In this document: positions 21,546-41,941 of the stretch, one piece after another
Layout: every line of letters begins with the position of its first letter
Numbering within the stretch: the stretch's first letter is position 1
From: an uncultured Acidobacteriaceae bacterium
GTDB lineage: Bacteria; Acidobacteriota; Terriglobia; Terriglobales; Acidobacteriaceae
Direction of reading: 5' to 3'
Assembly (NCBI GenBank): GCA_963752985.1
Contig: CAVWAN010000012.1
Location: 98,933 to 162,932, forward strand
DNA length: 64,000 bases
Program-made: the position numbers and the translations under genes
Notes under the pieces: generated by a model
What the model was told of the DNA's origin: nothing
The model's database searches: none
The model's input: only the letters and a program-made list of their open reading frames with translations

Positions 21546-22292
21546 ATGGCAGGTATTACGGGAATGCAGGCCGCAGAATTTTCGCAGATTGACAGCGGCC
21601 GGTTCGGGATACGTGTCGCAAGAGCACAGATCGTCCCCGACAATCTGCCGCGCGTGTTGGATTTCTGTGCTGCCGAGAAGATAGACCTGATAATCGCGCG
21701 TTGCTCCACCAACGATCTCGCTACGGCTCAGAACATGGAGATGCATGGGTTCCTCCTAATGGATACCCTCGTCTACTACCGCTTCGATTTGCTAAAGCGG
21801 GCGATCCCCGAGGACAAGGGACAATTGCTCGTGCGCACGCTTCAACCGGAAGACAAAGATCAGGTTCGTAGTGTCGCGAAAGAGGCCTTTAAGGGTTACA
21901 TGGGCCACTACCATGCTGATCGCCGATTGGACAGGCGCAAATGCAACGAGACATACGCTTCTTGGGCGGAACGATCCTGCATCCCAAAGACTGCTGCTGA
22001 TCATGTTCTCGTTGCCGACCGCAACGGCAAAGTCGCTGGATTTGCAACCTTGCGCCTGAATTCCTCGCAGGAAGTTGAGGGACTTCTTTACGCGGTGGTT
22101 CCGGAATGCCAAAGGCACGGAGTGTGCGGGTCCTTGATGATTCACAGTTTGCGGTGGACTGCTTCTCAGGGTGCGCAGCGCATGATCATTTCAACGCAAG
22201 TGACGAACGTTTCCATGCAGAAGGTTTGGTGTCGCGTCGGTTTCGAACCCAGTCACTCGTACTATACCTTTCACAAATGGTTTGATCGATGA
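21546..22292 (+). CDS. GNAT N-acetyltransferase, WecD (dTDP-fucosamine acetyltransferase)-like
   Basis: Two-domain layout: an N-terminal FGIRVARAQ region followed by a GNAT core (GFATLRL...LLYAVVPECQRHGVCGSLM). It lies immediately upstream of, and overlaps, the WecE-like gene. Confidence 0.65.
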   Translation: MAGITGMQAAEFSQIDSGRFGIRVARAQIVPDNLPRVLDFCAAEKIDLIIARCSTNDLATAQNMEMHGFLLMDTLVYYRFDLLKRAIPEDKGQLLVRTLQPEDKDQVRSVAKEAFKGYMGHYHADRRLDRRKCNETYASWAERSCIPKTAADHVLVADRNGKVAGFATLRLNSSQEVEGLLYAVVPECQRHGVCGSLMIHSLRWTASQGAQRMIISTQVTNVSMQKVWCRVGFEPSHSYYTFHKWFDR

Positions 22293-27421: not shown

Positions 27422-28396
27422 ATGAACCGGACGACGCGGTGGCATTACTACCGGCGTATCTTCAGCGCTTATCTTGGTTCCGGACAAAGCCAGCTGACGT
27501 TCTGGCACGAAACACCGGAGATCAATCCGCGCGCCACCGCCACACGGCTCGGCGAATACTACATGCTGTTTCGCGAGAAGGCCCACTACTCCGGGCATTA
27601 CGATGATGCCGGAATTCCGATGCTTCAGTACCACGGAGCGATTGGCCTGCAATACAACCCGATCGCAATCGCACAGTGGGGGCTCGCGAACTACAACTAT
27701 TTCTGCGAGACCGGGGAAGGCTGGGGCAAGACTCTCAGAGCAGCCGACTGGCTCGCTGCGAACCTCGAGCAGAATGCTCACGGGCTCTGGGTGTGGAACC
27801 ATCATTTTGACTGGGATTATCGCGATCCGCTGAGGGCGCCGTGGTATTCAGGGCTCGCTCAAGGACAGGGAGTTTCACTGCTTTTGCGGGCCCATGCGCA
27901 TGCCGGAGACGAGAAGTACCGGCAGGCGGCCGATAAAGCTTTTGTCTCGCTCACTCGCCCCATTGCCGAAGGTGGAGTGCTCTTTGAAGACGAGAAGAGG
28001 AACCTCTGGATCGAGGAATATCTGGTTGATCCGCCGACGCATATTTTGAACGGATTCATCTGGGCGCTGTGGGGAGTGTTCGATTTCTGGCTGGCGCACG
28101 CGGATGCTTCAGCGAAACAAGTTTTCGATCGCGGCGTAGAGACGCTAATCCACAACCTGGAACGATACGATACCGGATACTGGTCACTCTATGAGCAATC
28201 CGGAACTCGGCTCAAAATGTTGGCGAGTCCCTTCTATCATCGATTGCACATCGTACAGTTGCGCGTGCTGTCGGAGTTGACGGCAGAGGTTCATTTTGCG
28301 GACGTCGCCGAGCGCTGGGAAGGCTATGCGCGTCGTCGCAGCAACCGGACCCGTGCATTGGTCGGGAAAAGCGTTTTCAAATTACTGCACTACTGA
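27422..28396 (+). CDS. D-glucuronyl C5-epimerase C-terminal-domain family protein
   Basis: GIPMLQY...YNPIAIAQWGL, PWYSGLAQGQGVSLLLRAH, WIEEY, HILNGFIWALWGVFDF, YDTGYWSLY and FYHRLHIVQLRVL fit the C5-epimerase domain family as remembered. Confidence 0.7.
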   Translation: MNRTTRWHYYRRIFSAYLGSGQSQLTFWHETPEINPRATATRLGEYYMLFREKAHYSGHYDDAGIPMLQYHGAIGLQYNPIAIAQWGLANYNYFCETGEGWGKTLRAADWLAANLEQNAHGLWVWNHHFDWDYRDPLRAPWYSGLAQGQGVSLLLRAHAHAGDEKYRQAADKAFVSLTRPIAEGGVLFEDEKRNLWIEEYLVDPPTHILNGFIWALWGVFDFWLAHADASAKQVFDRGVETLIHNLERYDTGYWSLYEQSGTRLKMLASPFYHRLHIVQLRVLSELTAEVHFADVAERWEGYARRRSNRTRALVGKSVFKLLHY

Positions 28397-28427: not shown

Positions 28428-29684
28428 GTGAAGATTCTCTACGTTTCGCAATATTTTCCGCCGGAAATGGGAGCGCCAGCGGCGCGCGCCGCAGAGTTGT
28501 CCCGCCACTGGGCACGGATGGGGCATGAAGTAACTGTCCTTACCGGGTTCCCGAATCATCCGACCGGCATCGTACCCAAGGAGTGGCGATCGCGGCTCCA
28601 CAGGCTTCACTACTCCGAAACCGTCAATGGGGTGCACGTTGTTCGCACTTGGCTGTGGCCGCTGCCGAATCGAAAGGCGCACGAAAGGATTCGCAATTAC
28701 ACCTCGTTTTGCGTCTCGGCTGCCGTCAGCGGATTGCCTCTGTGCAAGCCAGATTTCGTTATCGCGACTTCTCCACAATTGTTGTGCGCGCTTGCGGGCT
28801 GGTGGATCGCATTTTGGAAGCGCGTCCCCTTCATCTTTGAGGTGCGCGATCTGTGGCCGGAATCGCTCGCGGCGGTCGGCGCCGGCGGCGAAGGAACCTT
28901 GCTTCATCGCACTCTGGGCGCCATCGCCGGGTTTCTTTACCGTCATGCCGAAAGTATTGTTGTCGTGTCGCCGGCTTTCAAAGACCACCTGATGCGTTAC
29001 TGGAATGTGCCAGAGACCAAGATTTCCATCGTCGAGAATGGCGTGGAGACCGATCTCTTTCGCTTCGACCCGGCGGCAGCAGCGGAAGTTCGTAAGCAAC
29101 TGAAAGTCGAAGATCGTTTTCTGATCTGCTACATCGGCACCATGGGCAATGCGCATGGATTGGAAACGTTGATCGCCGCCGCCGAAGAGATGCAGACTGC
29201 TCTGCCGGGCGCGATGTTCCTGCTGATTGGGGAAGGGGCGGAAAAAGAACGGATCGTGGAACTCGCCGCTGGGCGCGGATTGAGCAACATTCAGTTTCTT
29301 GGACAGCAGCCTCGGGAGCGGATTCCGGCATATGTTTCGGCTGCTGATCTCTGCCTGGTCATGCTGAAAAAGACCGAACTGTTCAAGACGGTGATTCCCA
29401 CCAAACTCCTCGAATACATGGCGTGCGAGCGTCCGGTCATCGTTGCCGTTGACGGGCAGGCTCGGCGGATTGTGGAAGAAGCCGGCGCGGGCGTTTTTGT
29501 GGAACCCGAAAACAGTGGAGCGCTGGTGCAGGCGATCCACGACCTGGCGGAAGATCCCGCGCGCCGACGGCAAATGGGAACCAGCGGGCGGCAATACATC
29601 GTCAACAGCTTTTCTCGCAAGAAAACGGCATGGGACTACATCGCTGTGCTTGAAACTCTCCGGGGATTGCACGGGAATCACTAA
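28428..29684 (+). CDS. glycosyltransferase family 4, WbuB-like
   Basis: The GTG at 28428 gives VKILYVSQYFPPEMGAPAARAAEL, typical of WbuB-type GT4. The C-terminal block is VIPTKLLEYMACERPVIVAV. Confidence 0.85.
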   Translation: MKILYVSQYFPPEMGAPAARAAELSRHWARMGHEVTVLTGFPNHPTGIVPKEWRSRLHRLHYSETVNGVHVVRTWLWPLPNRKAHERIRNYTSFCVSAAVSGLPLCKPDFVIATSPQLLCALAGWWIAFWKRVPFIFEVRDLWPESLAAVGAGGEGTLLHRTLGAIAGFLYRHAESIVVVSPAFKDHLMRYWNVPETKISIVENGVETDLFRFDPAAAAEVRKQLKVEDRFLICYIGTMGNAHGLETLIAAAEEMQTALPGAMFLLIGEGAEKERIVELAAGRGLSNIQFLGQQPRERIPAYVSAADLCLVMLKKTELFKTVIPTKLLEYMACERPVIVAVDGQARRIVEEAGAGVFVEPENSGALVQAIHDLAEDPARRRQMGTSGRQYIVNSFSRKKTAWDYIAVLETLRGLHGNH

Positions 29685-29789
29685 GGCAAGAACACAGGGA
29701 AGATGCAACGGGCCGCGCGGACATAGCCTGCCCGGTCTTCGGAAGCCCCCAAGCAAAGCCGGCGAGAATCCGAAGGCAGTGCCCGCGAC

Positions 29790-30782
29790 CTAAAAAGTCT
29801 GGACCCCAATGACTGCCAAGGTGGTGGACATCGCCACGGCTGCGTCCGCAGTGCGATAGGCCGCAGCCTTGGCCCCGCTTCCGGGTACGAACAATATGTC
29901 GCCTTTCGCCAGGGCCACATCGGGTGCCTTGGCATAAAATATTTTCTTGAGGTGGATAGGTATTTCCTGAATCCCGTTCGGCGTCTGGCGGATGATCCGG
30001 CTTTTGTTCAAGGCAGCGGTGCGGGTACCGCCGCCGGCCAGGGCCAGGGCTTTGAGAACACTGAGGGCGGTGTCTTCTGAAACTAGAAAGCCGCTGGGAC
30101 GCAGTACCTCGCCCACGACATAAACGATGCCCGCGCGCGAAACAATGATCAAGTCTCCCGGATAGATTTCCACGTTGTCTTGGGTATCCTCGGCCAAATT
30201 GTTAGACGACAGCTGAAGATCAACCTTCTTGCCGGGATCTCCGTGATGCTCGATGGTGACCATGCGGCCCGCTTTCTCGGTCAATCCTCCCGCGGCCGAG
30301 ATCAAGTCGAAAAGGCGGCGCTCGCCAATTGCAGGGTAGATTCCGGGGCGGATAACCTCTCCCATCACGTTGACGCCCTGCGAGCTGGATTCGTCCACAA
30401 AAATGGAAACGTGCGGGCCACGGACAAAGCCTCCATCCTCCAGGCGCTTCTGGATCAACTCCTGGGCTTCATCGGTAGTAAGGTCGGCAACGTGAACATA
30501 GTCAATCAGGGGAAGATAAACATCTCCCGAGCCACTGATCCGCGTCTTGGTCGAGAGATCGGGGACGCCGAACACCGTGATCTCGATCAGATCACCGATG
30601 CCAAGCTTCACATTGGAATTCGCAAGTGGACGAGGCGATTCAGGCGAAGCGGCCTGCTGGGCAGGCGCAGGCTGCGGTGTTTCCCCCGGAACCGGCGTCT
30701 GGGCCACAAGATTGAGGCTGCACAACCCAATCAGAAACACGTAGACGCTTCGCAAAATGAAGCGGCGATTCCACCCTGACAT
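29790..30782 (-). CDS. wza: polysaccharide export protein (Wza/OPX family, Poly_export + SLBB domains)
   Basis: Signal-like N-terminus. VKLGIGDLIEITVFGVPDLS (Poly_export) and two SLBB-like blocks (GVNVMGEVIRPGIY; IVYVVGEVLRPSGF). Confidence 0.8.
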   Translation of the reverse strand: MSGWNRRFILRSVYVFLIGLCSLNLVAQTPVPGETPQPAPAQQAASPESPRPLANSNVKLGIGDLIEITVFGVPDLSTKTRISGSGDVYLPLIDYVHVADLTTDEAQELIQKRLEDGGFVRGPHVSIFVDESSSQGVNVMGEVIRPGIYPAIGERRLFDLISAAGGLTEKAGRMVTIEHHGDPGKKVDLQLSSNNLAEDTQDNVEIYPGDLIIVSRAGIVYVVGEVLRPSGFLVSEDTALSVLKALALAGGGTRTAALNKSRIIRQTPNGIQEIPIHLKKIFYAKAPDVALAKGDILFVPGSGAKAAAYRTADAAVAMSTTLAVIGVQTF

Positions 30783-30978
30783 ACCAAGACTCCTGGATTT
30801 ACGCGTGAGTCGAGTTTAGCACACGCCGCCCAGTGAAATCGGAGCAGAAGGCTCTGTTTCCGAGGTCTCCCGGGTGGTCGCACGGGAGCGAGCGGGAGAG
30901 GGATTGGTCTTTTCGGCTAAACTTCTGCTTGGCTGCTTAATATCTCAAGTGTTTTGATATTGTTTCTCGTGGAATCTT

Positions 30979-31692
30979 ATGATGATTCGCAGAATGGTGG
31001 AGCATTTGAGTAGAGGCGTGGTCTTGCGCCGCCGTCTTCCCGCAAGATTTGGGCGCCTCCCGATATATGTGACGCCGGAGGCAGGTCTTCGATATTGGTC
31101 GGCCATGTCGCGAGTTGACCCGGTGCTTTATAGCATGGCAGAAGAGCTGGTGAAGCCAAACTCTGTCGTTTGGGACGTGGGCGCGAACGTGGGGCTCTTC
31201 AGCTTTTGTGCAGCCGCCGCCTCAGGTCCGCCCGGCTTCGTTTTGGCAATTGAGCCAGATTCCTGGCTCGCACACCTAATCACACGGTCCTGCCAAGAAA
31301 TTGCCCAATATGCATGTTCGAAGGTGCAAGTCTTGTGTGCGTCAATTTCAGATTCAAACCGCATCTCAAGTCTTGAAATAGCTGAAAGGGCGAGGGCGTC
31401 GAATCACTTGGTCGGAACGACCGGGTCGACTCAGGCAAGCGGCTTGCGATTTGTTCAGCCCACGGTCTCGCTGACTTTGGACTTCCTGCTGGATTATTTC
31501 CCTATTCCGTCAGTGTTGAAGATCGACGTGGAATCCCACGAGGTTAGTGTTTTGAAAGGAGCGGCACGGCTATTGAAAGAAATCCGGCCAACAATTTGGT
31601 GTGAGGTCCTGCACGAAAACTCGACAGAAGTCACGGAATTGTTGCACGCTGCGGGATGCATGGAGCGGAAGTTCAACCTCATCCGCCTATAG
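30979..31692 (+). CDS. FkbM-family methyltransferase
   Basis: VWDVGANVGLFS and KIDVESHEVSVLKGA are hallmark FkbM-family blocks. Confidence 0.8.
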   Translation: MMIRRMVEHLSRGVVLRRRLPARFGRLPIYVTPEAGLRYWSAMSRVDPVLYSMAEELVKPNSVVWDVGANVGLFSFCAAAASGPPGFVLAIEPDSWLAHLITRSCQEIAQYACSKVQVLCASISDSNRISSLEIAERARASNHLVGTTGSTQASGLRFVQPTVSLTLDFLLDYFPIPSVLKIDVESHEVSVLKGAARLLKEIRPTIWCEVLHENSTEVTELLHAAGCMERKFNLIRL

Positions 31693-31854
31693 AGCGGGCG
31701 TGGTTCCACACACTGGCAGTCCCGCTGCGAGACCATCCCCATTGTGAGCGTGGTTCCTGAACAGCTTTGGAATCGTTCCAGCTGTGCTGGCGATGTGGGA
31801 TATACTTTCTTGGCGGCAGGCGTGGATCGTTCCCTGTCAGGCCTTCCAAGATTG

Positions 31855-33609
31855 ATGACCATGAAGCTGGCAGAAGCCCTGAAGGTTGTTCAGTCAGCCC
31901 CCACCGATGCTCCTCCTCTGCCCATAGCTCTGTTGTGTGGTTTCACTCCCTTACATCTGGAAACATTCCTCCGGGCACAGCTGTGCGAATTGTTTCCCGG
32001 ACATTTTCCCGACGTGCAAACCGGTTTGTACGGTGACTTGATTGGCAACCTGCAGCGCGTGGCAGACGTTTCTGCGGCGGTAGTGGTAATCGAATGGGCT
32101 GATCTCGATCCCCGCCTGGGCCTGCGCCGGCTGGGTGGCTGGGAACCTTCCCAGTTGCAGGATATTCTCGCCGAAGTGAAGCGCAGCTGCGATCTTCTGC
32201 AGAAGGGCATGGCAGCGGCCGCGCGAAATATTCCGCTGGTGGTTAGTTTTCCGACTCTTCCGCTGGTTCCGGTTTCTGTTACCCCGCTGGCACGGGCGAG
32301 CGAGTTCACCCTTGAACTTCGCAGCTGTGTCGCCTCGCTTTGCGCTGCGCTGTCGCAGATTCCCGGCGTCAGAATCGTTGACGCTCAGCGACTGGATGCG
32401 CTGTCGTCCTCCCGGCGTCTGGATGTCAATGCCGATCTCTCGGCTGGCTTCCCCTATACCTTGACTCATGCTTCGGCGCTTGCCGAGGTGCTGGCTCGGT
32501 TAGTACTGAATCCGCAGCCCAAGAAGGGCCTGATCACGGATCTCGACGACACGCTCTGGAGTGGGATTCTGGGCGAGGTGGGAGTACAAGGAATCTCGTG
32601 GGACTTGGACAATCACAGCCAGATTCACGCGCTGTACCAGCAGTTGCTGCACTCCCTGGCGGCATCGGGGACGCTGATTGCCGTTGCCAGCAAAAACGAC
32701 CGCTCGCTGGTGGAAGAGGCGTTTGCCGCCCGAGAGCCTATCCTGCGCGCGACTGATGTTTTTCCCTTCGAGGTGCATTGGGGCGCGAAGTCTGAATCGG
32801 TGGCGCGCATCCTCGGCGCATGGAATATTTCGGCCAGCGATGTGGTGTATGTCGACGACAGCCCCATGGATCTTGCGGAGATCAAAGCGGCACATCCCGA
32901 AGCGGAATGTCTGCTGTTCCCACGCGAGAATCCGCAAGCCGCCTATGAGCTGTTGGAACGGCTGCGCGATTTGTTTGGCAAGGACAAGATCTCTCAGGAA
33001 GATGGCCTCCGCGCTGCCAGCCTGCGGGCCAACGCCCGCTTGCATCGTGATGTAGCGCAGGCTACGCCGGGTGCTGCGGGAGATTTTGTTCGCCAGATCG
33101 ACGGCCATCTGACTTTCACCTCGCAGAAACAGCCGCTCGATTCCCGGTCTCTGGAGTTGGTGAACAAGACCAACCAGTTCAACCTGAATGGCCGGCGCTT
33201 TCAAGAAGCCGAATGGCGAAATTGGCTGAATACGCCGGATGCCGTCCTGGTGGCAACCAGCTATCGCGACAAATACGGTCCTCTGGGAAAGATCGCTGTC
33301 ATTGCGGGCGATCTCTTGCATAGCGCCTCGACGGGGAAACGCAAGTTGTGCATCCGCACCTGGGTTATGAGTTGCCGCGCCTTTTCCCGCCTGATTGAAT
33401 ATGAGTGCGTGCGGTGGCTGTTTGCCAAGCTGGATGTAGAAGAACTTGAGTTTGACTTCGTGCCCACTGCGCGCAACACGCCCATACAGAACTTTTTGCA
33501 ACAGGTTCGTAATGCACCCGCGGAGCCGCACTGTCGTCTGTCCCGCGATCAATTCATGCTGAACTGCCCGGTATCAAGTCACCACGTCGAGGAATCGCCG
33601 AATGGCTGA
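31855..33609 (+). CDS. FkbH-like HAD-IIIC family protein (glyceryl-ACP forming type)
   Basis: GLITDLDDTLWSGILGEVG (HAD motif I, DxDxT), VASKND and VYVDDSP. The C-terminal domain is NKTNQFNLNGRR...WVMSCRAFSR. The start could be 31855 or 31861. Confidence 0.8.
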   Translation: MTMKLAEALKVVQSAPTDAPPLPIALLCGFTPLHLETFLRAQLCELFPGHFPDVQTGLYGDLIGNLQRVADVSAAVVVIEWADLDPRLGLRRLGGWEPSQLQDILAEVKRSCDLLQKGMAAAARNIPLVVSFPTLPLVPVSVTPLARASEFTLELRSCVASLCAALSQIPGVRIVDAQRLDALSSSRRLDVNADLSAGFPYTLTHASALAEVLARLVLNPQPKKGLITDLDDTLWSGILGEVGVQGISWDLDNHSQIHALYQQLLHSLAASGTLIAVASKNDRSLVEEAFAAREPILRATDVFPFEVHWGAKSESVARILGAWNISASDVVYVDDSPMDLAEIKAAHPEAECLLFPRENPQAAYELLERLRDLFGKDKISQEDGLRAASLRANARLHRDVAQATPGAAGDFVRQIDGHLTFTSQKQPLDSRSLELVNKTNQFNLNGRRFQEAEWRNWLNTPDAVLVATSYRDKYGPLGKIAVIAGDLLHSASTGKRKLCIRTWVMSCRAFSRLIEYECVRWLFAKLDVEELEFDFVPTARNTPIQNFLQQVRNAPAEPHCRLSRDQFMLNCPVSSHHVEESPNG

Positions 33610-33880
33610 GCTCGAGAGCCGTCTGGCTGAATGTTTTGCCATCGCTTTTCCGGAGCTTGATCCGCAGGAGATTCCTGCGGTGGCCATGGGTTCGCTGGCC
33701 AGCTGGGATTCACTGGCCGGCATCACCTTGCTTTCTCTGATTGAGGAGGAATTCGGCCTCAGCATATCGCCGGATGATGTTGCCGATCTGGTTTCTTTTG
33801 AGCTGATCTTGGATTATCTAAAGAAGGATTATCTAAGGAAGGATGATCTGCGAAGATTATCTCCGGAGGAGGCAGAGTGA
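33602..33880 (+). CDS. acyl carrier protein
   Basis: 92 aa with the phosphopantetheine site LASWDSLAGITLLSLIEEEFG (DSL). It overlaps both neighbouring genes. Confidence 0.8.
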   Translation: MAELESRLAECFAIAFPELDPQEIPAVAMGSLASWDSLAGITLLSLIEEEFGLSISPDDVADLVSFELILDYLKKDYLRKDDLRRLSPEEAE

Positions 33881-35076
33881 CGCTTGCGCCTAAGATCTTT
33901 TCTGCGGCTGACCTCAGGGTGGGACTCACGGCCGAGTACGAGCGCGAAATTGAAGAGTCGGATGTGCTCGGCTTCGCCGCAAACTCGGGGGACTTCAATC
34001 CTTTGCATGTGGATTCCGCCTTCGCCCAGCACAGCCGGTACTCGCAGCGCATTGTTCACGGTGCTTTTCAGATTGGCTTAGCCTCGGCTTTAATCGGCAT
34101 GCATTTGCCCGGCCGCGACGTGCTTTTGGGATCAGTCAATGCGCGTTTTCTCTCGCCTCTCTACTTTCCGTCTCGAGTTCGGGTGAGCGGGGAAGTCACG
34201 GCGTGGAACCCTGCATCTCTTGCCGGCAGCGTCCGGGTTACGGTGAGCGAACTTGCATCCCTTGCGCCAGCAGCAGAGATCACCATGGCTTTCACGCTGC
34301 AGACCGTGAAACCGGGGCAGCCCGCTAGCGTTCCGCAGCAATCGAGGCCGGCGGAAACGGCATTTTCCACGGACCGGAGAGTCGTGTTGCTCACGGGAGC
34401 ATCTGGAGGAATTGGCGCTGCCTTGCTGAAGGCCCTGGCGGAAGAATTTTCGGTGCTGGCGTTGGTTCACCGCCATCCCCTGCAGGAAAGGCCTCCCGAC
34501 ACCATGGAGGTGCAGGCCGATATCAGCGCTCCGGGTTGGGAACAAATTGTCACCGAGCGCCTTGGCGCCCATCCGCTGTATGGCATCGTCCATTGTGCGT
34601 GGGCCGGCATGCCTAAAGGCGGGCTGCTGCACAGCGATCCCCGGCTCATCGAGCAACAGCTTGCCTTCGGAACTTCCCACGTGGTGCGCCTGGCGCGTTT
34701 ACTTTTCAGTCTGGTTGGTTCTGATGGCGGGCGAATGGTGGCACTCGGGTCAGCTGCGGGTCACTACAAGCCTGCCTTGGGCCTGGGAGCTTATTCTCTC
34801 GCCAAGTCTGCTTTGGAAGACACGCTCCGGCTTCTCGCTCCAGAAATGGCTCGCAAGAAAATCAGCATCAATGCCGTGTGCCCAACTTTCGTGGCCGCCG
34901 GCATGAACGTGCAAGCCCAATCCGATGACTTGCAGATCAAGCGCGAACGAGCTTTGATTCCCATGGGTCGCCTTTGTGAGACCGGAGATGTCGTCGGTGC
35001 GGTCCGCTATCTTCTGTCACCGGCCGCCTCGTTCATTTCCGGGCAATCGATCGTGCTTGCCGGGGCGCAGCTGTAG
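33877..35076 (+). CDS. fusion of a MaoC-like (R)-hydratase/dehydratase hot-dog domain and a short-chain dehydrogenase/reductase
   Basis: The N-terminal part has the hydratase motif NSGDFNPLHVDSAFA. The C-terminal part has VLLTGASGGIGAAL (TGxxxGxG) and YSLAKSAL (YxxxK). Confidence 0.8.
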   Translation: MTLAPKIFSAADLRVGLTAEYEREIEESDVLGFAANSGDFNPLHVDSAFAQHSRYSQRIVHGAFQIGLASALIGMHLPGRDVLLGSVNARFLSPLYFPSRVRVSGEVTAWNPASLAGSVRVTVSELASLAPAAEITMAFTLQTVKPGQPASVPQQSRPAETAFSTDRRVVLLTGASGGIGAALLKALAEEFSVLALVHRHPLQERPPDTMEVQADISAPGWEQIVTERLGAHPLYGIVHCAWAGMPKGGLLHSDPRLIEQQLAFGTSHVVRLARLLFSLVGSDGGRMVALGSAAGHYKPALGLGAYSLAKSALEDTLRLLAPEMARKKISINAVCPTFVAAGMNVQAQSDDLQIKRERALIPMGRLCETGDVVGAVRYLLSPAASFISGQSIVLAGAQL

Positions 35077-35079
35077 GTC

Positions 35080-36186
35080 ATGGGTCCGCGCGCAAACAAG
35101 ATGCCAGAAGACGGGATCAAGAAAGGACTTCAGCTGCACGAGATAGCTCCTACAGACCTGGAGGACGTGGCTCGATTCCTCAGCCGCGAGTCGGGATCGG
35201 GCACGTCCCTTCCTCGCGTCCTGGAGCGGCTCTCTTGGATACTGCTGGAAAACCCTGCGCGCGAACCGGACGATCCTTTGGGGTGGTTTCTCCGTACACC
35301 GTCCGGCGAAGTCGCCGGCTGCATGTGCTGCACTCCCCAGAAGTTCTGCTTTGGTCAGACGGCGTTTACGCTGATGGTGGCCAATTCGTTTTACGTGGAT
35401 AACCAATATCGCGGAAGTGGCACATCGATTTTCCTGAAGTATTTGCAACTGGGCCGCCGCTACCCTTTGTTCGTCACTTCTGCCAATGCGACCGTGGCAG
35501 AAATGTGGCAGAAGCTTGGCGGGTATCCCTTGGGGAATTCGGACTGCGAAGTCATTGGCATAGTGCGCTGGCCGCCGTTGCTGGCAGAAAGCGTTTACCG
35601 CAAGACGGGAAGCGATGGCATGGCCCGATTCGCGGCCGCTCTGGCATCTCCCTGGTTTCGTGCGCGGCGCCGGCTAGCTCTGGACGCCGACGAAGGAACC
35701 CTCCTGCCGCTCGGTAGCCCTGAGGATGCGGCTCGCGTCTGCGCGGAGCAGCGCAGCGACAAGATCACGAGTTGCCGGGATATCCCGTTTCTCAAATGGC
35801 GCTACTTCTCGCGGGTTGGCCCCATGACTCGCCTGTTTGCGTTTCGCCCGCGTGACGGCGACAAAAAACAATTCATGGTCGCGGTTTGCTTACAGAATCG
35901 CGGATACAAACAACAGATAAGAGCCTTGCACATACTGGATATCTGGGGAGAGTCGGATTCGAACTGCTATCTCGCAATCGCTGCCGGTTTGTGGCGCGAG
36001 TATCGTGCGCAGATTGATATGCTGGTATTCCGCTGCCTCAATCCTGAGCAGCAGCAAGCTCTAGCGGCCCACGGCTTCAAGGTTCGTTCGTTTGCAGCGC
36101 CCATTGCCTGGTGCATGGACAAGTATGGGCTGCTTCCATCGAAGACTTGGTATGTTGTGCCAGCCGATGGCGACATGTTTCTGTGA
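35080..36186 (+). CDS. hypothetical protein with a GNAT-like acyltransferase fold (two-lobed, FemAB/CelD-like?)
   Basis: FYVDNQYRGSGTSIFLKYL resembles the GNAT Q/RxxGxG/A cofactor loop. At 368 aa it could hold two GNAT-like lobes. Function is inferred from context. Confidence 0.5.
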   Translation: MGPRANKMPEDGIKKGLQLHEIAPTDLEDVARFLSRESGSGTSLPRVLERLSWILLENPAREPDDPLGWFLRTPSGEVAGCMCCTPQKFCFGQTAFTLMVANSFYVDNQYRGSGTSIFLKYLQLGRRYPLFVTSANATVAEMWQKLGGYPLGNSDCEVIGIVRWPPLLAESVYRKTGSDGMARFAAALASPWFRARRRLALDADEGTLLPLGSPEDAARVCAEQRSDKITSCRDIPFLKWRYFSRVGPMTRLFAFRPRDGDKKQFMVAVCLQNRGYKQQIRALHILDIWGESDSNCYLAIAAGLWREYRAQIDMLVFRCLNPEQQQALAAHGFKVRSFAAPIAWCMDKYGLLPSKTWYVVPADGDMFL

Positions 36187-36195
36187 GGCTACAGT

Positions 36196-37101
36196 TTGAG
36201 TGCTAAGACCTTCTTGCGTTCAGCATTGATAGGAACTGCGGCAGCGCTTCGCGTGGATGAATTGGCCCTCGGCTTGCGGCGCTGGCTTGTCCACCGAGGT
36301 CAATCTCCCAGCATGCTGGTGATTGAAATGCACGAGACCCCGGAGCAGGACGAATCCCGCCTCCGCCAGCAGTTAGAGTGGGCAGCGCGTCATTTTATGC
36401 TGGTCGACCTTCCCACTTTTGCCCGTTTGTGGCAAGTGTATCGCACCAACCCGCGAGCATTCCGCGAGAGCAACTCTAAGCCGCCCTTGCTGTTTACTTT
36501 TGATGATGGCCGGCTGAATAACTACACCGTCGCGGCGCCGGTGCTGGAGTCTTTCGGAACGCGCGGGGTTTTCTTTGTGGTTCCGCAGTTTGTGCAATGC
36601 AATCCACAGGAAGCGCGCCAGTTCTACTATTCACGCATCGATACGCGGCAGCTTCCGCCCAATCTCCCCAAAGAAGAAACGCGCTCCATGACGCCCCAGC
36701 AAATCGCGGATCTAGCGCGCCGCGGGCACTCCATTGGCAACCACACGTTCTCGCATGTGAATCTCCGCACCTTGCCCGAAAGTCAGTTGCATCACGAGAT
36801 CGTGGAGAGCGCCGCACAAATCGCCGCTTGGGCGGGGCAGCCCGCGGATGCCTTTGCCTGGACGTTTTCGTGGGACTCGATCACTCCTTTTGCCTGGAAG
36901 CTGATCCAGCAGCATCACCGCTTCTGCTTTGCGCCTTGCCCCGGTTCCGTGGATTGCCGCGCTGACTCGCAGAGTCTGATCTGGCGCACGGAAGTGGAGG
37001 TAGCTTATCCGCCGTCGGATTTCCGCTTCATGTACGCTGGGCTGGCCGACCCCCTGTGGCGGAGCAAGCGAGTGCGCCTGCGAGCTGCGCTGGAAGAATA
37101 A
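36196..37101 (+). CDS. polysaccharide deacetylase (NodB homology, CE4) family protein
   Basis: LLFTFDDGRLNNY (TFDDG motif), RGVFFV and GHSIGNHTFSH. Confidence 0.8.
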   Translation: MSAKTFLRSALIGTAAALRVDELALGLRRWLVHRGQSPSMLVIEMHETPEQDESRLRQQLEWAARHFMLVDLPTFARLWQVYRTNPRAFRESNSKPPLLFTFDDGRLNNYTVAAPVLESFGTRGVFFVVPQFVQCNPQEARQFYYSRIDTRQLPPNLPKEETRSMTPQQIADLARRGHSIGNHTFSHVNLRTLPESQLHHEIVESAAQIAAWAGQPADAFAWTFSWDSITPFAWKLIQQHHRFCFAPCPGSVDCRADSQSLIWRTEVEVAYPPSDFRFMYAGLADPLWRSKRVRLRAALEE

Positions 37102-37278
37102 AGTTCATCAATGAAAGCCCCGAAACAGTTGCTCCGCACCGCCCACGAGTTGTATAGTTCCTACCAATCAACATTTCATCACACGGCGCGGGAAACCCTG
37201 TCTGAAGAAATAGAGTGAAACGTCCGCGCGCACGTGATCTAAAGTGCCGGGTGTTTCAGCCGGAAGGGAACTGTAATT

Positions 37279-38823
37279 TTGACGCTCCTGTTCTTTGGGC
37301 TTTTTGCGTTTTCGCTGGTTGTGTCCTTTGTCGCAACCCGCGAAGTACGGGACCTGGCAACCCGCCGAGGCTGGGTTTCGCTGCCGCAAGACGGGCGGCA
37401 CGTTCACCAGACCCCGCTTCCCCGGCTGGGGGGCGTGGCGATTTTCCTGGCTTTTTCGGTCAGCTTGGGCGTGTGGCTGGGACTCTCGCTGGTCTTTCCG
37501 CGGCTGGTCGATGGCCTTGCTCCCACCACAATTCTTCAAATCTATGTTCCGGCCTGCCTGATTTTTTGTCTTGGTATCTACGACGACCTCCGCGGCGCAG
37601 GTCCATATTTGAAGTTTGCCGTGCAAGCGATCGCCGCTGCGATGCTGTTCGCCGGCGGAATGCGCGTTCTCAATCTTCCACTGATCTTCGGTTCCCATTC
37701 GCTGCCCTGGTTCGTCGGGTTACCCCTTACGGTGTTGTGGGTGGTTGCGGTTACCAATGCCTTCAATCTCATTGACGGCTTGGACGGCCTAGCCGCTGGA
37801 TCGGCCTTATTTTCGACCATGGTGGTCTTTGTCGTCTCGCTGGTCACCCATTCCTGGCTGGGCTCCCTGATGAGCGTGACACTGGCCGGCGCCATTTTGG
37901 GATTCCTGCGCTTCAACTTCAATCCGGCCACGATTTTTCTGGGTGACTCGGGGAGCCTGTTCATTGGGTTCATGCTCAGCGCGCTGGCTCTGGCGGGAGC
38001 GGAGAAAGCGCCAACCTTCGTGGCTGTGGCCATCCCTGTGGTCTCGTTCGGTTTGCCGATTCTGGAAACCATGCTATCCATTATCCGCCGGTTGATCAGC
38101 GGGCGGCCGATCTTCACCGCCGATCGCGAGCATATCCACCACAAATTGTTGCAGATGGGTTTCTCGCATCGCCAGGTGGTCATCGTTCTCTACGCCGTTT
38201 CCGCCGTCTTTGCCATGCTCAGCCTGTTCCTGCTTTGGCCCACGGGCAGCACTCTGGGACTGGTGCTGGCGGTGGTGGGGACCGGCGTCTGGCTGGGGGT
38301 CCAGCACCTGAACTACCTCGAGTTTGGCGAACTGCGGCGCGTGGCCCAGCGCACCATCGAGCAGCGGCACATCGTGATCAACAATCTTTCCGTTCGCCGC
38401 GCCGTCGAGGAACTCAAAGCGGCTGGCAATTTCGATCAGGTACGCAGAGTCCTGGTCGCGGCCTTCGATAGCAACGATTTCGATGCCTTCGAACTGCACC
38501 TCAAGTCCATGCCCGATGATCGGACAGTGCCCGGCGAAACCGGCCGCCACTTTCACTGGAGCAAGTTGCCTCACATGGCGGCAATTTCCAGCCAGCCTTC
38601 ATGGAAACTGACGCTGGACTTGGTGACCACTGCGAACCGCTCCCGCGGCTCGCTCGTCGTATACCGCATCTACAGCCAGCGCGATCTGCAATTGGATGTC
38701 AACCTCCTGACGTCCGAGTTTCCCGTTACCCTGGCGGACGCGCTCGATCGAGTATTGACCACGCCTGAGGTTCTCGTCCCAGCTGAGCAAGGTGATACGC
38801 CGGTCCTGGCCGCCAACCTGTAA
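37279..38823 (+). CDS. undecaprenyl-phosphate HexNAc-1-phosphate transferase (WecA/MraY family) with a ~170-aa C-terminal extension
   Basis: PRLGGVAIFLAF, YDDLRG, VTNAFNLIDGLDGLAAG, FLGDSGSLFIGF and HIHHKLL. The region after about residue 345 (38310-38823) is soluble and matches no family I recognise. Confidence 0.85.
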   Translation: MTLLFFGLFAFSLVVSFVATREVRDLATRRGWVSLPQDGRHVHQTPLPRLGGVAIFLAFSVSLGVWLGLSLVFPRLVDGLAPTTILQIYVPACLIFCLGIYDDLRGAGPYLKFAVQAIAAAMLFAGGMRVLNLPLIFGSHSLPWFVGLPLTVLWVVAVTNAFNLIDGLDGLAAGSALFSTMVVFVVSLVTHSWLGSLMSVTLAGAILGFLRFNFNPATIFLGDSGSLFIGFMLSALALAGAEKAPTFVAVAIPVVSFGLPILETMLSIIRRLISGRPIFTADREHIHHKLLQMGFSHRQVVIVLYAVSAVFAMLSLFLLWPTGSTLGLVLAVVGTGVWLGVQHLNYLEFGELRRVAQRTIEQRHIVINNLSVRRAVEELKAAGNFDQVRRVLVAAFDSNDFDAFELHLKSMPDDRTVPGETGRHFHWSKLPHMAAISSQPSWKLTLDLVTTANRSRGSLVVYRIYSQRDLQLDVNLLTSEFPVTLADALDRVLTTPEVLVPAEQGDTPVLAANL

Positions 38824-38908: not shown

Positions 38909-40729
38909 ATGGAGGCAATTATGGATCAGAGCACTCTCCGATTGCCGGATCCAGTCGCGGGTTTCCCCAACCGAGAGCGGCGCCGTTCGGTTCGTCAAAA
39001 ACTCCACACTCCGGTTTACGCCAGTTTCAATGGCCCGCAGACCGGCATGGTAGTGGACCTGAGCGAGTTACTGGACCTGCACGAAGAGGGCTTCGCCGTC
39101 CGAACCAGTGAGCGGCTGGAAACGAACCACGCCGTAACCCTTTGCCTCGATCTGTCGGAAACCAAAAGTTACATTCACAGCAGTGGTCAAGTGGTCTGGA
39201 GCGATGACACTGGCCGCGGAGGCATCCGCTTCTCCGGGCTTTCGGAGAGTTCACGCCAAGTATTGCGACAATGGCTCTTTGCCAACCTGCTGGTAGCCTG
39301 CTCCAATCACGCTGCCCGCACCGAACAACTCACGCGGCGCAAGAATGACGAAGAGAAATTAGCGCAGCCCGTGTTGGTGAGTGAAGCTCCCAACGTCGTC
39401 CCGATCGTCTCTCGTGTAGAGACGGGGCTTGCCCCGTCTCAGACGCGGCAAGCCGCGTCTCTACAGGTGGAGGCGGTTCGCCGCGAGGTCCGTGAGATCG
39501 GTGACGACGTCGAAGCCGTCTTGCTGCTTGTCACCGAGCGTGCCTTGTCGCTTACCGGAGCCAGCGGCGCGGCCCTGGCGTTGCTCACCGACGGCAAGAT
39601 GGTCTGCCGGGCGCGGGCCGGTGAACCCGCTCCGCCACTGGGAGCCCCCGTGGACGCAAAACAAGGGCTGTCTGGAGAATGCGTTCGCAATGGCCTCCTC
39701 GTCTCGTGCGAGGACACGGGCAACGATCCGCGCATCGATCCCGAAGTCTGTCGCGCACTGGGTATTGGCTCGCTCATGGCCACTCCCATCGTGTCCGATT
39801 TCCGGGTGGTGGGTCTGCTGGAGATTTTCTCTCCGCACTCCCGAAATTTCACGAAGGTCCATGAGACGGTTTTGGAGCGGCTCGTCGAAATGATTCCCAA
39901 AACCCATCGTGAAAAAAGACAGCCTGAAAGCATCCAGCCCGAGGCAACTCAGCCGGAAACGCCTATTGGCTCAGAAGCTGTGCCGCAGCCTCCCGTTTCG
40001 GGGGCAAGCTCGACGGAGCCAGAAGCGACCGAGGCCACTTCGATGCACGCGACTCCCGAGGCCTTGTGGGAACAGAAGCCTGAAGTCAGCGAGCAAGCCT
40101 CGCAGACGGTCGCCGAATCCGCATCTGGAGTTCGGCCTCACTTGCTGCACTGGACGCTGCTCGGGCTGGCCATCCTGGCGGTGGCGATGGCTCTTGGCTA
40201 TTTAGTCGGGTCCACGATGCCGAGCCGTTGGACGCCCTCGCCGCAAGCATCGCAGCAGTCCGTGGTCAACGGGGCCGAGGCGGCATCGAGGGGTTCGGGG
40301 CAAAGTGCTACCGATCGTAGCTCACCCGAGCAACACGCACCAGTGAAGTCCCTGGCAGACTTGCGCAAGCTCGCCGAACGGGGAGACCCGGAAGCGCAGT
40401 GGCAAATGGGCGTGCGCTACTACGATGGAGACGGCGTTACGCACGATGACGTGCAGGCCATGAAGTGGTTCGAGTTAGCCGCCGAGCAGGGGCATATCAA
40501 TGCTCAGTCTCGTCTTGGCGCCTACTACTGGGCGGGGCGTGGAGTTCCTGTAGATTTGTTCAAATCCTATTTCTGGTCGGCAATCGCGATGCACCAAGGC
40601 GACGAAATCAGCAAGGGTCGGCTCGAAGGTTTATCTCTCCAAATGACCCGGGCGCAGGTCGCCGCCGCAAGCCAGCAAGCCGACGACTGGCTCCGCCAGC
40701 ACAATTCCGCAAAGTCCGCAAAGAACTGA
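38909..40729 (+). CDS. multidomain protein: PilZ - GAF - TM helix - Sel1/TPR-like repeats
   Basis: PilZ motifs RERRRSVRQ and DLHEEGFAV. GAF-like block ALALLTDGKMVCRARAG...SLMATPIVSDFRVVGLLEIFS. TM helix LLHWTLLGLAILAVAMALGYLV. Sel1 repeats GDPEAQWQMGVRYYDGDGV, AAEQGHINAQSRLGAYYWAGRGV. Confidence 0.75.
   Translation: MEAIMDQSTLRLPDPVAGFPNRERRRSVRQKLHTPVYASFNGPQTGMVVDLSELLDLHEEGFAVRTSERLETNHAVTLCLDLSETKSYIHSSGQVVWSDDTGRGGIRFSGLSESSRQVLRQWLFANLLVACSNHAARTEQLTRRKNDEEKLAQPVLVSEAPNVVPIVSRVETGLAPSQTRQAASLQVEAVRREVREIGDDVEAVLLLVTERALSLTGASGAALALLTDGKMVCRARAGEPAPPLGAPVDAKQGLSGECVRNGLLVSCEDTGNDPRIDPEVCRALGIGSLMATPIVSDFRVVGLLEIFSPHSRNFTKVHETVLERLVEMIPKTHREKRQPESIQPEATQPETPIGSEAVPQPPVSGASSTEPEATEATSMHATPEALWEQKPEVSEQASQTVAESASGVRPHLLHWTLLGLAILAVAMALGYLVGSTMPSRWTPSPQASQQSVVNGAEAASRGSGQSATDRSSPEQHAPVKSLADLRKLAERGDPEAQWQMGVRYYDGDGVTHDDVQAMKWFELAAEQGHINAQSRLGAYYWAGRGVPVDLFKSYFWSAIAMHQGDEISKGRLEGLSLQMTRAQVAAASQQADDWLRQHNSAKSAKN
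39416..39464. repeat. compound palindromic (REP-like) element embedded in frame inside the CDS
   Basis: gtagagac-ggggcttgcccc-gtctc|agac-gcggcaagccgc-gtctctac. It contains two adjacent perfect palindromes (39419-39440 and 39441-39460) plus outer gtagagac/gtctctac arms. Confidence 0.85.
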
Positions 40730-40825
40730 AGGAGACGTTGGTTTCCCCTGTGTCCTCCGTGTTCCCTGTGGTAAAGAACTCGCCTCTTGTAACCTGCTAG
40801 CCTCAAACAGCCGTAAAATAGGGTC

Positions 40826-41941
40826 GTGGCCACGCTGCGCGACATTCTGATGGCCGACGATCGCGTTCGCGAGGGCGATCCCGCTCTTTGGGAAAAGCTG
40901 GATCGCAATCGAGTGCGCTGCTATGCCTGCGGCCACTGCTGCCCGATTCCCGAGGGGCAACCCGGCGTCTGCAAGGTTCGCTTCAACCACGAAGGCACGC
41001 TTTACGTGCCCTGGGGCTACGTCGCCGGAGTGCAATGTGACCCGGTCGAGAAGAAGCCGTTTTTCCACGCTCACCCCGGGGCCCTCGCCTACAGTTTCGG
41101 AATGCTGGGCTGCGATCTGCACTGCGCCTACTGTCAGAACTGGGTCACGTCGCAGGCGCTGCGCGACCCGAATGCGGTGTCAGCGCCGCTGCTGGCCGAT
41201 CCGGCGCTGCTGATCAAAGATGCGGTTAACCAAGGCGCAAAAGTCGTGGTCAGCACCTATAACGAGCCGCTGATCACCAGCGAATGGGCGGTTGCGGTTT
41301 TCCGCCAGGCGCGCCAGGCGGGCTTGCTGACCGGGTTCGTTTCGAATGGCAACGGAACGCCGCAGGTGCTCGAGTATCTCCATCCCTGGATCGATCTCTA
41401 CAAAGTGGATCTCAAGAGCTTCGACGATCGCCACTATCGCCAGCTTGGCGGACGCCTGCAGCCGATCCTCGACACCATCCGCAGTTTGCACAAGATGGGC
41501 GTATGGCTGGAGATCGTTACCCTACTCATTCCCGGCTTCAACGACAGCGACGACGAACTGCGGAATATGACTGCATTTCTGGCCGGCATTTCACCAGACA
41601 TTCCCTGGCACATAACCGCTTTTCACCAGGACTACAAGATGACTTCGCCGGCCGATACGCGTCCGGAGGACTTGCTGCGCGCCGCCGCCATCGGCCGTGA
41701 AGCCGGATTGCGTTACACCTACGCGGGCAACCTTCCCGGGCAGGTGGAGGGACTGGAAGATACTCATTGTCATCAGTGTGGGGAAATGCTGATCCAGCGC
41801 TGTGGATATTCGATCAAGAAGTACAGGTTGACTCCGCAGGGCGGTTGCCCAGTGTGCCACGCGCCGCTCCCTGGCCGCTGGTCGAAGAAATTTGACGGCC
41901 AGATTGCGTCCTCGCCTTTTCTGCCCCGCAGACGTGCTTGA
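40826..41941 (+). CDS. amrS: AmmeMemoRadiSam-system radical SAM enzyme
   Basis: VRCYACGHCCPIPEGQPGVCKVR, QCDPVEKKPFFH and GCDLHCAYCQNW (CX3CX2C) are typical of AmrS/PflA-like activases. Confidence 0.8.
   Translation: MATLRDILMADDRVREGDPALWEKLDRNRVRCYACGHCCPIPEGQPGVCKVRFNHEGTLYVPWGYVAGVQCDPVEKKPFFHAHPGALAYSFGMLGCDLHCAYCQNWVTSQALRDPNAVSAPLLADPALLIKDAVNQGAKVVVSTYNEPLITSEWAVAVFRQARQAGLLTGFVSNGNGTPQVLEYLHPWIDLYKVDLKSFDDRHYRQLGGRLQPILDTIRSLHKMGVWLEIVTLLIPGFNDSDDELRNMTAFLAGISPDIPWHITAFHQDYKMTSPADTRPEDLLRAAAIGREAGLRYTYAGNLPGQVEGLEDTHCHQCGEMLIQRCGYSIKKYRLTPQGGCPVCHAPLPGRWSKKFDGQIASSPFLPRRRA

Follow-up and report, generated by a model that had tools for sequence, protein, structure and literature searches.

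Gene Content and Organization of the Cassette

The DNA analyzed here is a stretch of 64,000 nucleotides from an uncultured Acidobacteriaceae bacterium (contig CAVWAN010000012.1, positions 98,933 to 162,932), referred to below as the window. The subject is a block of six genes at window positions 30979-37101, in which an FkbH homologue, an acyl carrier protein (ACP) and a MaoC dehydratase fused to a short-chain dehydrogenase/reductase (SDR) are followed by a GNAT-like protein of 368 aa and a CE4 deacetylase. The initial annotation had described this block as a discrete cassette predicted to serve glycerate-derived, ACP-dependent acyl decoration of a polysaccharide. The listing of open reading frames (ORFs) confirmed six ORFs on the + strand at the coordinates first described, co-directional and tightly packed or overlapping. 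The family assignment of every gene was upheld in hidden Markov model searches, that of the 368-aa protein by predicted fold only. The six genes are as follows:

30979..31692, + strand: FkbM-family S-adenosylmethionine-dependent methyltransferase, variable accessory gene (TIGR01444, 69.5 bits, cut-off 37.7; PF05050, 48.4 bits)
31855..33609, + strand: long-form FkbH/HAD-IIIC protein, 584 aa, predicted glyceryl-ACP loader (TIGR01686, 193.9 bits, cut-off 146.65; HAD-IIIC TIGR01681, 46.6 bits, cut-off 35.75)
33602..33880, + strand: dedicated ACP, 92 aa, WDSL serine site (PP-binding, PF00550, 24.7 bits, cut-off 20.8)
33877..35076, + strand: fusion of a MaoC-type (R)-hydratase/dehydratase hot-dog domain (~aa 1-150; MaoC_dehydratas PF01575, 65.2 bits, cut-off 27) and a FabG-like SDR (~aa 160-399; adh_short_C2 PF13561, 82.9 bits, cut-off 27)
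35080..36186, + strand: tandem-GNAT protein, 368 aa, predicted acyl-ACP:amino-sugar N-acyltransferase, conserved core gene (AlphaFold2 fold)
36196..37101, + strand: predicted cytoplasmic CE4 (NodB-type) deacetylase, obligate neighbor of the tandem-GNAT gene (Polysacc_deac_1 PF01522, 69.1 bits, cut-off 23.1)

Start and stop codons overlap at the FkbH/ACP and ACP/MaoC junctions, and spacers of 3 nt and 9 nt lie between the MaoC/SDR and GNAT genes and between the GNAT and CE4 genes, respectively. The junctions from FkbH to CE4 point to translational coupling. The spacer of 162 nt between FkbM and FkbH is the sole gap in the six-gene block. A scan for promoters and terminators gave counts no higher than expected from shuffled sequence and was thus uninformative. 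Hydropathy analysis found no membrane-scale hydrophobic segment in any of the six products, while the neighboring WecA-type protein contains such segments, and the six products are predicted to be soluble and cytoplasmic.

Catalytic Residues and Predicted Folds

The FkbH ORF opens at a GTG at 31744 and ends at 33609. The true start is likely the ATG at 31855 ('MTMKLAEALK'), because the relatives align from residue 38 and the remnant of the gene in the related loci L001 and L014 begins there. Residue numbers are counted from this ATG. The protein was aligned with a homologue from Paludibaculum, with FkbH of a tetronate-type operon of Streptomyces (FabH-FkbH-ACP-E2-hydrolase, the classical tetronate 'glycerate utilisation' layout), and with the FkbH domain of a large polyketide synthase (PKS) of Burkholderia sp. 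FERM BP-3421. The HAD motifs D229-x-D231-x-T233, S279-K280-N281, K312 and D334-D335 were invariant in this alignment, and likewise TNQFN (439-443) and S506-C507-R508. The catalytic Asp and Cys residues, whose loss would have spoken against glyceryl loading, are therefore kept; Cys507 is the residue that we take to be the catalytic Cys from the work on OzmB.

In the AlphaFold2 model of FkbH (pLDDT 80.9), the protein consists of three parts, namely an N-terminal domain, a HAD domain and a GNAT-like C-terminal domain. A structure search with this model matched the N-terminal and HAD part to the crystal structure 3slr of B. fragilis BF1531 (E 6.8e-18, TMt 0.76) and the C-terminal part to single-domain GNATs, and the invariant Cys stands directly after the strand 496-505. 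The Pfam model FkbH_N was not detected in the window protein and was detected in the homologue from locus L097 only. The ACP gene adjoins FkbH and overlaps its stop codon, which is the dedicated-ACP layout of the FkbH family. The WDSL serine of the ACP aligned with the serine of small carrier proteins from five other cassette types.

A long-form FkbH homologue with 45% identity was also found on plasmid pPfer1 of the cultured acidobacterium Paludibaculum fermentans (locus L091, record 29011-38205). Its neighbors in a plasmid glycan locus are a divergent 281-aa GNAT gene, a CE4 gene, several glycosyltransferase (GT) genes, an MBOAT gene and a gene of the O-antigen-ligase family.

The N-terminal part of the MaoC-SDR fusion carries SGDFNPLH, the MaoC/hydratase-2 motif with the catalytic Asp...His, and its nearest solved relatives are HTD2 and PhaJ. 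The SDR part carries the cofactor motif TGASGGIG and the Ser-Tyr-Lys signature GSAAG...YSLAK; it is nearest to FabG enzymes among solved structures and reached no NCBIfam equivalog cut-off. By analogy, the fusion is predicted to edit the ACP-bound unit.

The 368-aa protein had no match in Pfam (E<=0.01), where the NodA family would also have been found, or among NCBIfam models. Remote members of its family gave sub-threshold matches to GNAT models only (best 18.8 bits against 20.7), and a profile search of PDB sequences reached a best E of only 0.0098. The AlphaFold2 model of the protein (pLDDT 80.7, pTM 0.80) matched tandem-GNAT enzymes in Foldseek, with N-myristoyltransferases and the Eis-like 2hv2 at E ~1e-11 over ~350-390 columns and TM-scores of 0.5-0.57. 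The label 'GNAT-like' given in the initial annotation is thus right at the fold level, and the moderate TM-scores leave the details of the tandem-GNAT arrangement uncertain. The first lobe contains a motif-A-like loop, R111-G-S-G114-T-S, after strand 4 (94-106), and R111 was at least 90% conserved in 40 diverse members. The family comprises 317 representatives at 50% identity (E<=1e-3). A tblastn search of plasmids with the tandem-GNAT protein gave no match, and a homologue search with the remote member P0167 returned only the query itself.

In the CE4 protein, FDDG (102-105), H183, S186 and H187 were invariant across partners from seven cassette types. In the region of motifs 3-5, only W222, R264 and E268 were invariant, and the canonical motifs were not recognizable. 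None of the NCBIfam equivalogs was reached; the best was HfsH with 40.8 bits (cut-off 400).

A Conserved Core Pair with Variable Acyl Supply Modules

About 100 loci were gathered, and the genes neighboring the tandem-GNAT gene were mapped by tblastn and Pfam. The metagenome scan was run with an alignment of 12 tandem-GNAT sequences; the genome scan reached close relatives only. A CE4 gene adjoins the tandem-GNAT gene in 66 of the 67 loci with at least 1 kb of downstream sequence, and this adjacency holds down to 33% identity. The tandem-GNAT and CE4 genes are the conserved core. The gene set of the window was found again in 25 related loci and partly also in very distant lineages. The architectures are given below, with identities to the window proteins:

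Class A (25 loci with enough upstream sequence), 62-86% tandem-GNAT identity: Acyl_transf_3 - FkbH - ACP - MaoC/SDR - GNAT - CE4 - WecA
L089 and L007, ~40% tandem-GNAT identity: ACP - AMP-ligase - SDR - GNAT - CE4
About 22 loci, 38-43% tandem-GNAT identity: HMGL-like - AMP-ligase - cyclase - ACP - GT1 - GNAT - CE4
L092, 33% tandem-GNAT identity: LuxC - GNAT - CE4
L098, 29% tandem-GNAT identity: ACP - SDR - FabH - GNAT - CE4 - Wzy
L099 and L100, 27% tandem-GNAT identity: CE4 - small WDS-type carrier - SDR - AMP-ligase - LuxE - FkbM - LuxC - GNAT
L097 (47% guanine-cytosine (GC) content), FkbH 26% and GNAT 28% identical: CE4 - glyoxalase-family - FkbH - ACP - GNAT - GT - FkbM
L103 (51.5% GC), FkbH 51% identical: GNAT - FkbH - ACP - CE4

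FkbH, ACP, tandem GNAT and CE4 thus occur together in two further very distant lineages, L097 and L103, both of which are without the MaoC/SDR fusion. The distant recurrences are 21-28% identical to the window in the transferase and 26-51% identical in FkbH, and the 406-aa GNAT of L103 was recognized as a family member in a profile comparison (probability 98.4%, E 4.4e-15, 339 columns). This independent side-by-side recurrence backs the link from FkbH through ACP to the GNAT-like protein, with CE4 alongside, that had been proposed from the window alone.

A carrier protein and acyl-forming enzymes lie beside the tandem-GNAT gene in six architectures, with L097 and L103 counted as one and L092 left out. 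The GC content of the cassette loci ranged from 47 to 69%, indicating that the loci come from different taxa. Carrier-protein genes are few per genome, and their position beside the tandem-GNAT gene in six architectures and several taxa is hard to ascribe to chance, which is a judgment and not a computed statistic. All examined loci of these architectures are glycan loci, in which GTs, Wzx, Wzy, Wza and a WecA-type protein are encoded. The modules that supply acyl-ACP are interchangeable and of at least five kinds, one of which is FkbH-ACP-MaoC/SDR.

The composition of several other modules was recorded. In L069 (4229-9962) and ~20 similar loci (L063-L088), a 628-aa HMGL-like/DmpG-like aldolase-type protein, an AMP-ligase, a PF04199 'cyclase', an ACP and a GT1 are encoded before the GNAT-CE4 pair. 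In L098 (5926-9932), an ACP, a FabG-like SDR and FabH (NF006829, 282 bits, cut-off 249) precede the tandem GNAT, CE4 and Wzy, and this gene set looks like one for making and transferring a 3-hydroxybutyryl group. L099 (1433-8456) and L100 (2042-9065) encode a short CE4, a 79-aa WDS-type carrier, an SDR, an AMP-ligase, LuxE, FkbM and LuxC before the tandem GNAT, a module that presumably resembles the tetronate genes of Vibrio cholerae O1. A glyoxalase/VOC-family protein (L097, 5602-5985) is encoded between CE4 and FkbH in the L097 cassette, which has no MaoC/SDR. Glyoxalase I chemistry gives lactoyl thioesters, and it is speculated by analogy that this protein may be an alternative editor of the C3 unit. 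The SDRs of class A and of another class, B, were also compared as possible cases of convergence on the same reductase; their identity of 34% is no more than usual among FabG-like proteins and was uninformative.

The FkbM gene had been counted as a cassette member, and this was not borne out. Among the class-A loci, it was found in the window, L009 and L028 only. Most relatives carry the Acyl_transf_3 gene in its slot, which FkbM occupies in the window and L009. FkbM-family genes of low mutual similarity lie near the tandem-GNAT gene in two remote lineages, L097 and L099/L100. Because FkbM is not conserved with the cassette, the proposed O-methylation of the acyl unit is unsupported in this lineage, and FkbM is probably a separate, dispensable O-methyltransferase acting on a sugar or an acyl group.

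Presence and Absence of the FkbH Block and Selection on the Cassette Genes

The close relatives of the window are all metagenome-assembled genomes of Terriglobales/Acidobacteriaceae. Locus L009 is collinear with the window, with ~90% nucleotide identity over 30774-31762 and 35122-36300, and it is without the intervening 3.36 kb, which is exactly FkbH-ACP-MaoC/SDR (window 31762-35122 against L009 9992-10022). In L001 and L014, only 32 nt of the FkbH start are left (window 31854-31885), and L041 and L042 are also without the block. FkbH-ACP-MaoC/SDR is an exchangeable 3.4-kb acyl-donor cartridge. The description of the six genes as one discrete cassette therefore stands for the link between FkbH, ACP, GNAT and CE4, but the conserved unit is the tandem GNAT and CE4 only, and both FkbM and the FkbH block are dispensable.

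The ratio of nonsynonymous to synonymous substitution rates (dN/dS) of the cassette genes was 0.08-0.31 overall, as under purifying selection, with 0.09-0.18 for FkbH and 0.08-0.14 for MaoC/SDR. The tandem GNAT gave 0.13-0.31 in every comparison, the same with and without the FkbH block, and GNAT and CE4 were equally constrained in relatives lacking the block. Decay of the tandem GNAT where the FkbH block is missing was considered and ruled out, as its dN/dS was ~0.2 with and without the block. In L003 (6553-8414) and L004 (6757-8529), the FkbH gene appeared as two or three overlapping tblastn pieces, that is, with frameshifts that are either pseudogene mutations or assembly errors; the dN/dS values for L003 are meaningless owing to this split gene.

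The Surrounding Polysaccharide Locus

The window covers a large polysaccharide locus of the Wzx/Wzy type, with a Wzx flippase, a Wzy polymerase and many GT1 and GT2 transferases. It also encodes an AsnB-like amidotransferase, methyltransferases and a glucuronyl C5-epimerase-like protein. The polysaccharide setting of the six genes and the two genes that flank them, as first described, were both borne out. The flanking genes are as follows:

29790..30782, - strand: Wza-type outer-membrane polysaccharide export protein, divergent left flank (Poly_export, 73.1 bits, and two SLBB domains)
37279..38823, + strand: WecA/MraY-family polyprenyl-phosphate N-acetylhexosamine-1-phosphate transferase, right flank (Glycos_transf_4, 135.8 bits)

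Both proteins stayed under the cut-offs of more specific models, the Wza-type protein with 143.7 bits against EpsE TIGR03028 and the WecA-type protein with 117.4 bits against TIGR02380. The Wza gene holds the same position in related loci, and the WecA-type gene directly follows CE4 in nearly all class-A loci. The WecA-type protein has 514 aa and was matched by the GT4 model of Pfam over 88-240 and by TIGR02380 over 11-316; the ~190 C-terminal residues that extend past the GT4 domain had no family match. The WecA-type gene is followed at 38909-41941 by genes for a PilZ-GAF-Sel1 protein (606 aa) and a radical-SAM protein, an order kept in nearly all class-A loci, and the PilZ-GAF-Sel1 gene may place the locus under the control of cyclic di-GMP.

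Other genes of amino-sugar synthesis were found farther away. PseG (TIGR03590, 242.6 bits, cut-off 153.55), a class-I methyltransferase and PseI (TIGR03586, 486.3 bits, cut-off 340.25) are encoded at 336-3222. PseG and PseI are part of a pseudaminic-acid pathway, whose remaining genes may lie upstream of the window; pseudaminic acids are sugars known to carry N-glyceroyl groups. At 21546-23449, a gene for a WecD-like GNAT (under the cut-offs) stands right before that of a WecE-type dTDP-4-amino-4,6-dideoxyhexose transaminase (561.2 bits, cut-off 375), and these two genes make up another amino-sugar branch that has an acetyltransferase of its own. Two further genes of the locus, at 27422-28396 and 8738-10240 (minus strand), encode a protein resembling D-glucuronyl C5-epimerases (162.9 bits) and a member of the sulfatase family (169.8 bits), respectively, an unusual pair for a bacterial exopolysaccharide.

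Proposed Mechanism and Alternative Explanations

By a narrow measure, we favor the explanation that the block is a cytoplasmic system that swaps one N-acyl group for another on a surface polysaccharide. The long-form FkbH protein, judged by its family, would take a glyceryl unit from 1,3-bisphosphoglycerate, with the HAD domain removing the phosphate. The glyceryl unit would be held on Cys507 of the GNAT-like C-terminal domain and then passed to the adjacent dedicated ACP. The most likely route from there, by analogy with PKS loading modules of the type DH-KR-FkbH-ACP (dehydratase, ketoreductase), is that MaoC would remove the 3-hydroxyl by dehydration to give enol-pyruvoyl/pyruvoyl-ACP, which the SDR would reduce to lactyl-ACP. 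The N-acetylated hexosamine that CE4 would deacetylate is probably a precursor linked to a nucleotide or to undecaprenyl diphosphate and made beside the WecA-type transferase, and the tandem GNAT would move the acyl group from ACP onto the freed amine. The window lineage would accordingly carry N-lactyl or a close C3 relative, lactyl itself being a tentative and somewhat doubtful choice for the specific acyl group in the window, and the cartridges without MaoC/SDR (L097 and L103) would produce N-glyceroyl. The original idea of moving a glyceryl-ACP-derived unit to an amino sugar is thus largely supported in silico by the families, the residues and the recurrence of the genes, apart from the single-cassette view and the O-methylation.

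A broader reading, which we regard as plausible but hold with a little more doubt than belief, is that a cytoplasmic CE4 de-N-acetylase and a tandem-GNAT acyl-ACP:amino-sugar N-acyltransferase form a widespread and so far uncharacterized two-enzyme core. Different acyl-ACP cartridges would plug into this core, which would serve generally as the source of non-acetyl N-acyl groups on the surface polysaccharides of bacteria. The cartridges would be FkbH with or without MaoC/SDR, AMP-ligase/SDR, HMGL/ligase/cyclase, FabH/FabG and LuxC/LuxE, and the groups would include glyceroyl, lactyl, 3-hydroxybutyryl and others. Cartridges would come and go among close relatives in the manner of serotype determinants.

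Several observations weigh against the proposed N-acyl swap. The five close relatives without the block (L001, L009, L014, L041 and L042) keep GNAT intact, at a dN/dS of ~0.2 in the four block-less relatives tested, so the transferase is not strictly dependent on a donor from the FkbH block. The chief reason to prefer a modular pathway over a strict one-to-one scheme is that the core pair stays useful without this donor. L050 keeps FkbH and is missing ACP and MaoC/SDR. GNAT enzymes mostly use thioesters of CoA and not of ACP, and FkbH is only 24-26% identical to the proteins of PKS and tetronate type. The lactyl step is proposed by analogy with PKS loading modules, most of which are predicted as well. 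Other amino sugars, with amines that do not depend on a deacetylase, are also made by the locus (WecE-type transaminase with WecD-like GNAT; PseG/PseI).

The persistence of GNAT and CE4, equally selected, in loci without FkbH-ACP-MaoC/SDR would also be expected if the two were independent units, with GNAT/CE4 using an ordinary donor (acyl-CoA or housekeeping acyl-ACP) and the FkbH block feeding another step, such as O-acylation via the membrane protein Acyl_transf_3, or a lipid anchor. The Acyl_transf_3 gene directly upstream of FkbH in most class-A loci and the MBOAT gene in the locus of the Paludibaculum plasmid homologue fit this explanation as well. It is nevertheless unlikely, as a carrier and acyl-building enzymes adjoin the tandem-GNAT gene in six unrelated architectures, FkbH-ACP directly abuts it in L097 and L103 without Acyl_transf_3, and the window contains no Acyl_transf_3 gene. 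FkbH might also load a unit that is not derived from glycerate, given its low identity (24-26%) to FkbH proteins of characterized type and the great number of long-form HAD-IIIC proteins (4795 matches at E<=1e-20). The phosphatase and Cys motifs shared without change with the tetronate-operon FkbH and the PKS FkbH domain, the score above the curated FkbH cut-off and the same three-domain build make this quite improbable. Polyketide and fatty-acid pathways typically contain FkbH, ACP, MaoC and SDR, and the cassette could belong to lipid or secondary-metabolite synthesis and lie in a glycan locus by chance; with no ketosynthase, PKS, nonribosomal peptide synthetase (NRPS) or tetronate partner gene in the window, Wza and WecA-type flanks, and glycan loci in every lineage examined, we consider this very improbable.

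The remaining alternative keeps the pathway and changes the acceptor: the amine would come from an aminotransferase, in the 4-amino-4,6-dideoxyhexose branch or in pseudaminic acid, and CE4 would deacetylate something else. PseG and PseI, above their curated cut-offs, and the WecE-type transaminase are encoded in the locus, and N-glyceroyl and di-O-methylglyceroyl pseudaminic acids exist (PMC5378307, PMC3068675). The adjacency of GNAT and CE4 in 66/67 loci speaks against it, and no NeuB/PseI family member was found within 8-9 kb on either side of the gene looked up in L097, L098 and L103, where the sole transaminase-type match was WecE-like; we hold this explanation to be improbable.

If the proposal that GNAT/CE4 is the transferase core and the carrier modules set the acyl group is true, the decoration could be predicted from sequence and the family could serve as a handle for genome searches, and the glycerate-loading chemistry of FkbH in polyketide synthesis would also feed glycans. 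Unusual N-acyl groups on surface sugars, among them glyceroyl, lactyl and hydroxybutyryl, affect antigenicity, the recognition by phages and how the matrix behaves physically. The present analysis offers a sequence-readable hypothesis, obtained in silico from uncultured organisms, for N-acyl diversification on bacterial surface glycans. The cartridge layout suggests a route for glyco-engineering by swapping N-acyl groups, and in soil Acidobacteria it bears on the chemistry of abundant exopolysaccharides.

Comparison with Known Systems

The statement in the initial annotation that no characterized pathway has exactly this composition needs to be divided. The concept has precedents in Flavobacterium psychrophilum, Campylobacter jejuni, and the Nod and Lpx pathways, while neither the cartridge architecture nor the tandem-GNAT family has, to our knowledge, been described before.

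In the synthesis of Nod factors, NodB, a CE4 enzyme, removes one N-acetyl group of N-acetylglucosamine, NodA N-acylates, and NodF and NodE are a dedicated ACP and ketosynthase. The cassette is similar in pathway logic only: deacetylation by CE4 would be followed by acyl transfer from a dedicated ACP, with the acyl group made by neighboring genes. Unlike in the Nod system, the transferase here is a tandem GNAT without the NodA signature, the proposed acyl group is a short C3 hydroxy-acid from FkbH and not a fatty acid, and the target is a Wzx/Wzy polysaccharide and not a chito-oligosaccharide signal. In the LpxC/LpxD pair, an amino sugar is deacetylated and then N-acylated from hydroxyacyl-ACP in the cytoplasm, and the order and compartment proposed here are the same. 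However, LpxC is not a CE4 enzyme, LpxD is a left-handed beta-helix, and the Lpx donor is a long-chain acyl group on the housekeeping ACP.

The DH-KR-FkbH-ACP loading modules of PKS are proposed to give lactyl starters, and the cassette resembles them in having a dehydratase and a reductase beside FkbH. In contrast to the polyketide systems, the FkbH product is proposed to feed a glycan, and the dehydratase is a free-standing MaoC hot-dog domain fused to a FabG-like SDR. The invariant motifs and the adjacent ACP are shared with the FkbH/ACP loaders of methoxymalonyl-ACP, tetronate and PKS/NRPS pathways. Loading of glyceryl from 1,3-bisphosphoglycerate onto ACP is established for FkbH enzymes of the OzmB type (PMC9057759, PMC7489565), and the known FkbH/ACP glyceryl loaders include OzmB, Mad7/Mad14, BslA and OocJ (PMC9057759, PMC7489565, PMC13122637, PMC4552970), the last being part of a related DH-MT-FkbH-ACP module (MT, methyltransferase; PMC4552970). 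Two of these pathways were considered for the window and rejected. For a methoxymalonyl-ACP pathway of the FkbG-K type, the window contains no FkbK/FkbI-type oxidases (3-hydroxyacyl-CoA or acyl-CoA dehydrogenase type) and no FkbG-type O-methyltransferase. The FabH-like synthase, E2-like acyltransferase and hydrolase of the tetronate 'glycerate utilisation' operon, all present in the Streptomyces comparison locus, are absent from the window.

Among glycan systems, ACP-dependent N-acylation of an O-antigen amino sugar with a 3,5-dihydroxyhexanoyl group has been predicted for wfpC-wfpG of F. psychrophilum (PMC6519341). As proposed for the window, a polysaccharide-locus ACP and fatty-acid-type enzymes would build an N-acyl group for an amino sugar. 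That system, which is also predicted only, differs in its PglD-like transferase, its aminotransferase-derived amine and the absence of FkbH.

A search of the available literature library found no paper joining FkbH or HAD-IIIC with polysaccharide synthesis beyond a mention in C. jejuni, where cj1302 of the flagellar glycan locus (~cj1295-cj1302) is an FkbH-domain gene (PMC7099621). The same strain makes a di-O-methylglyceroyl sugar (PMC3068675), and a step that removes the acetyl group and then adds methylglyceroyl has been hypothesized (PMC3068675, PMC7099621). Tannerella forsythia makes the pseudaminic acid Pse5Am7Gra with a glycerate-derived N-acyl group, and the genetic basis of the N-glyceroyl group has been called 'a major challenge' (PMC5378307). 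The C. jejuni system differs from the cassette in that its proposed deacetylating enzyme is the aminopeptidase-like Cj1295, no tandem-GNAT/CE4 pair has been reported, and the sugar is a nonulosonic acid on flagellin. The proposed product of the cassette shares with both organisms a glycerate-derived N-acyl group on surface sugars, and with the C. jejuni locus an FkbH-domain gene.

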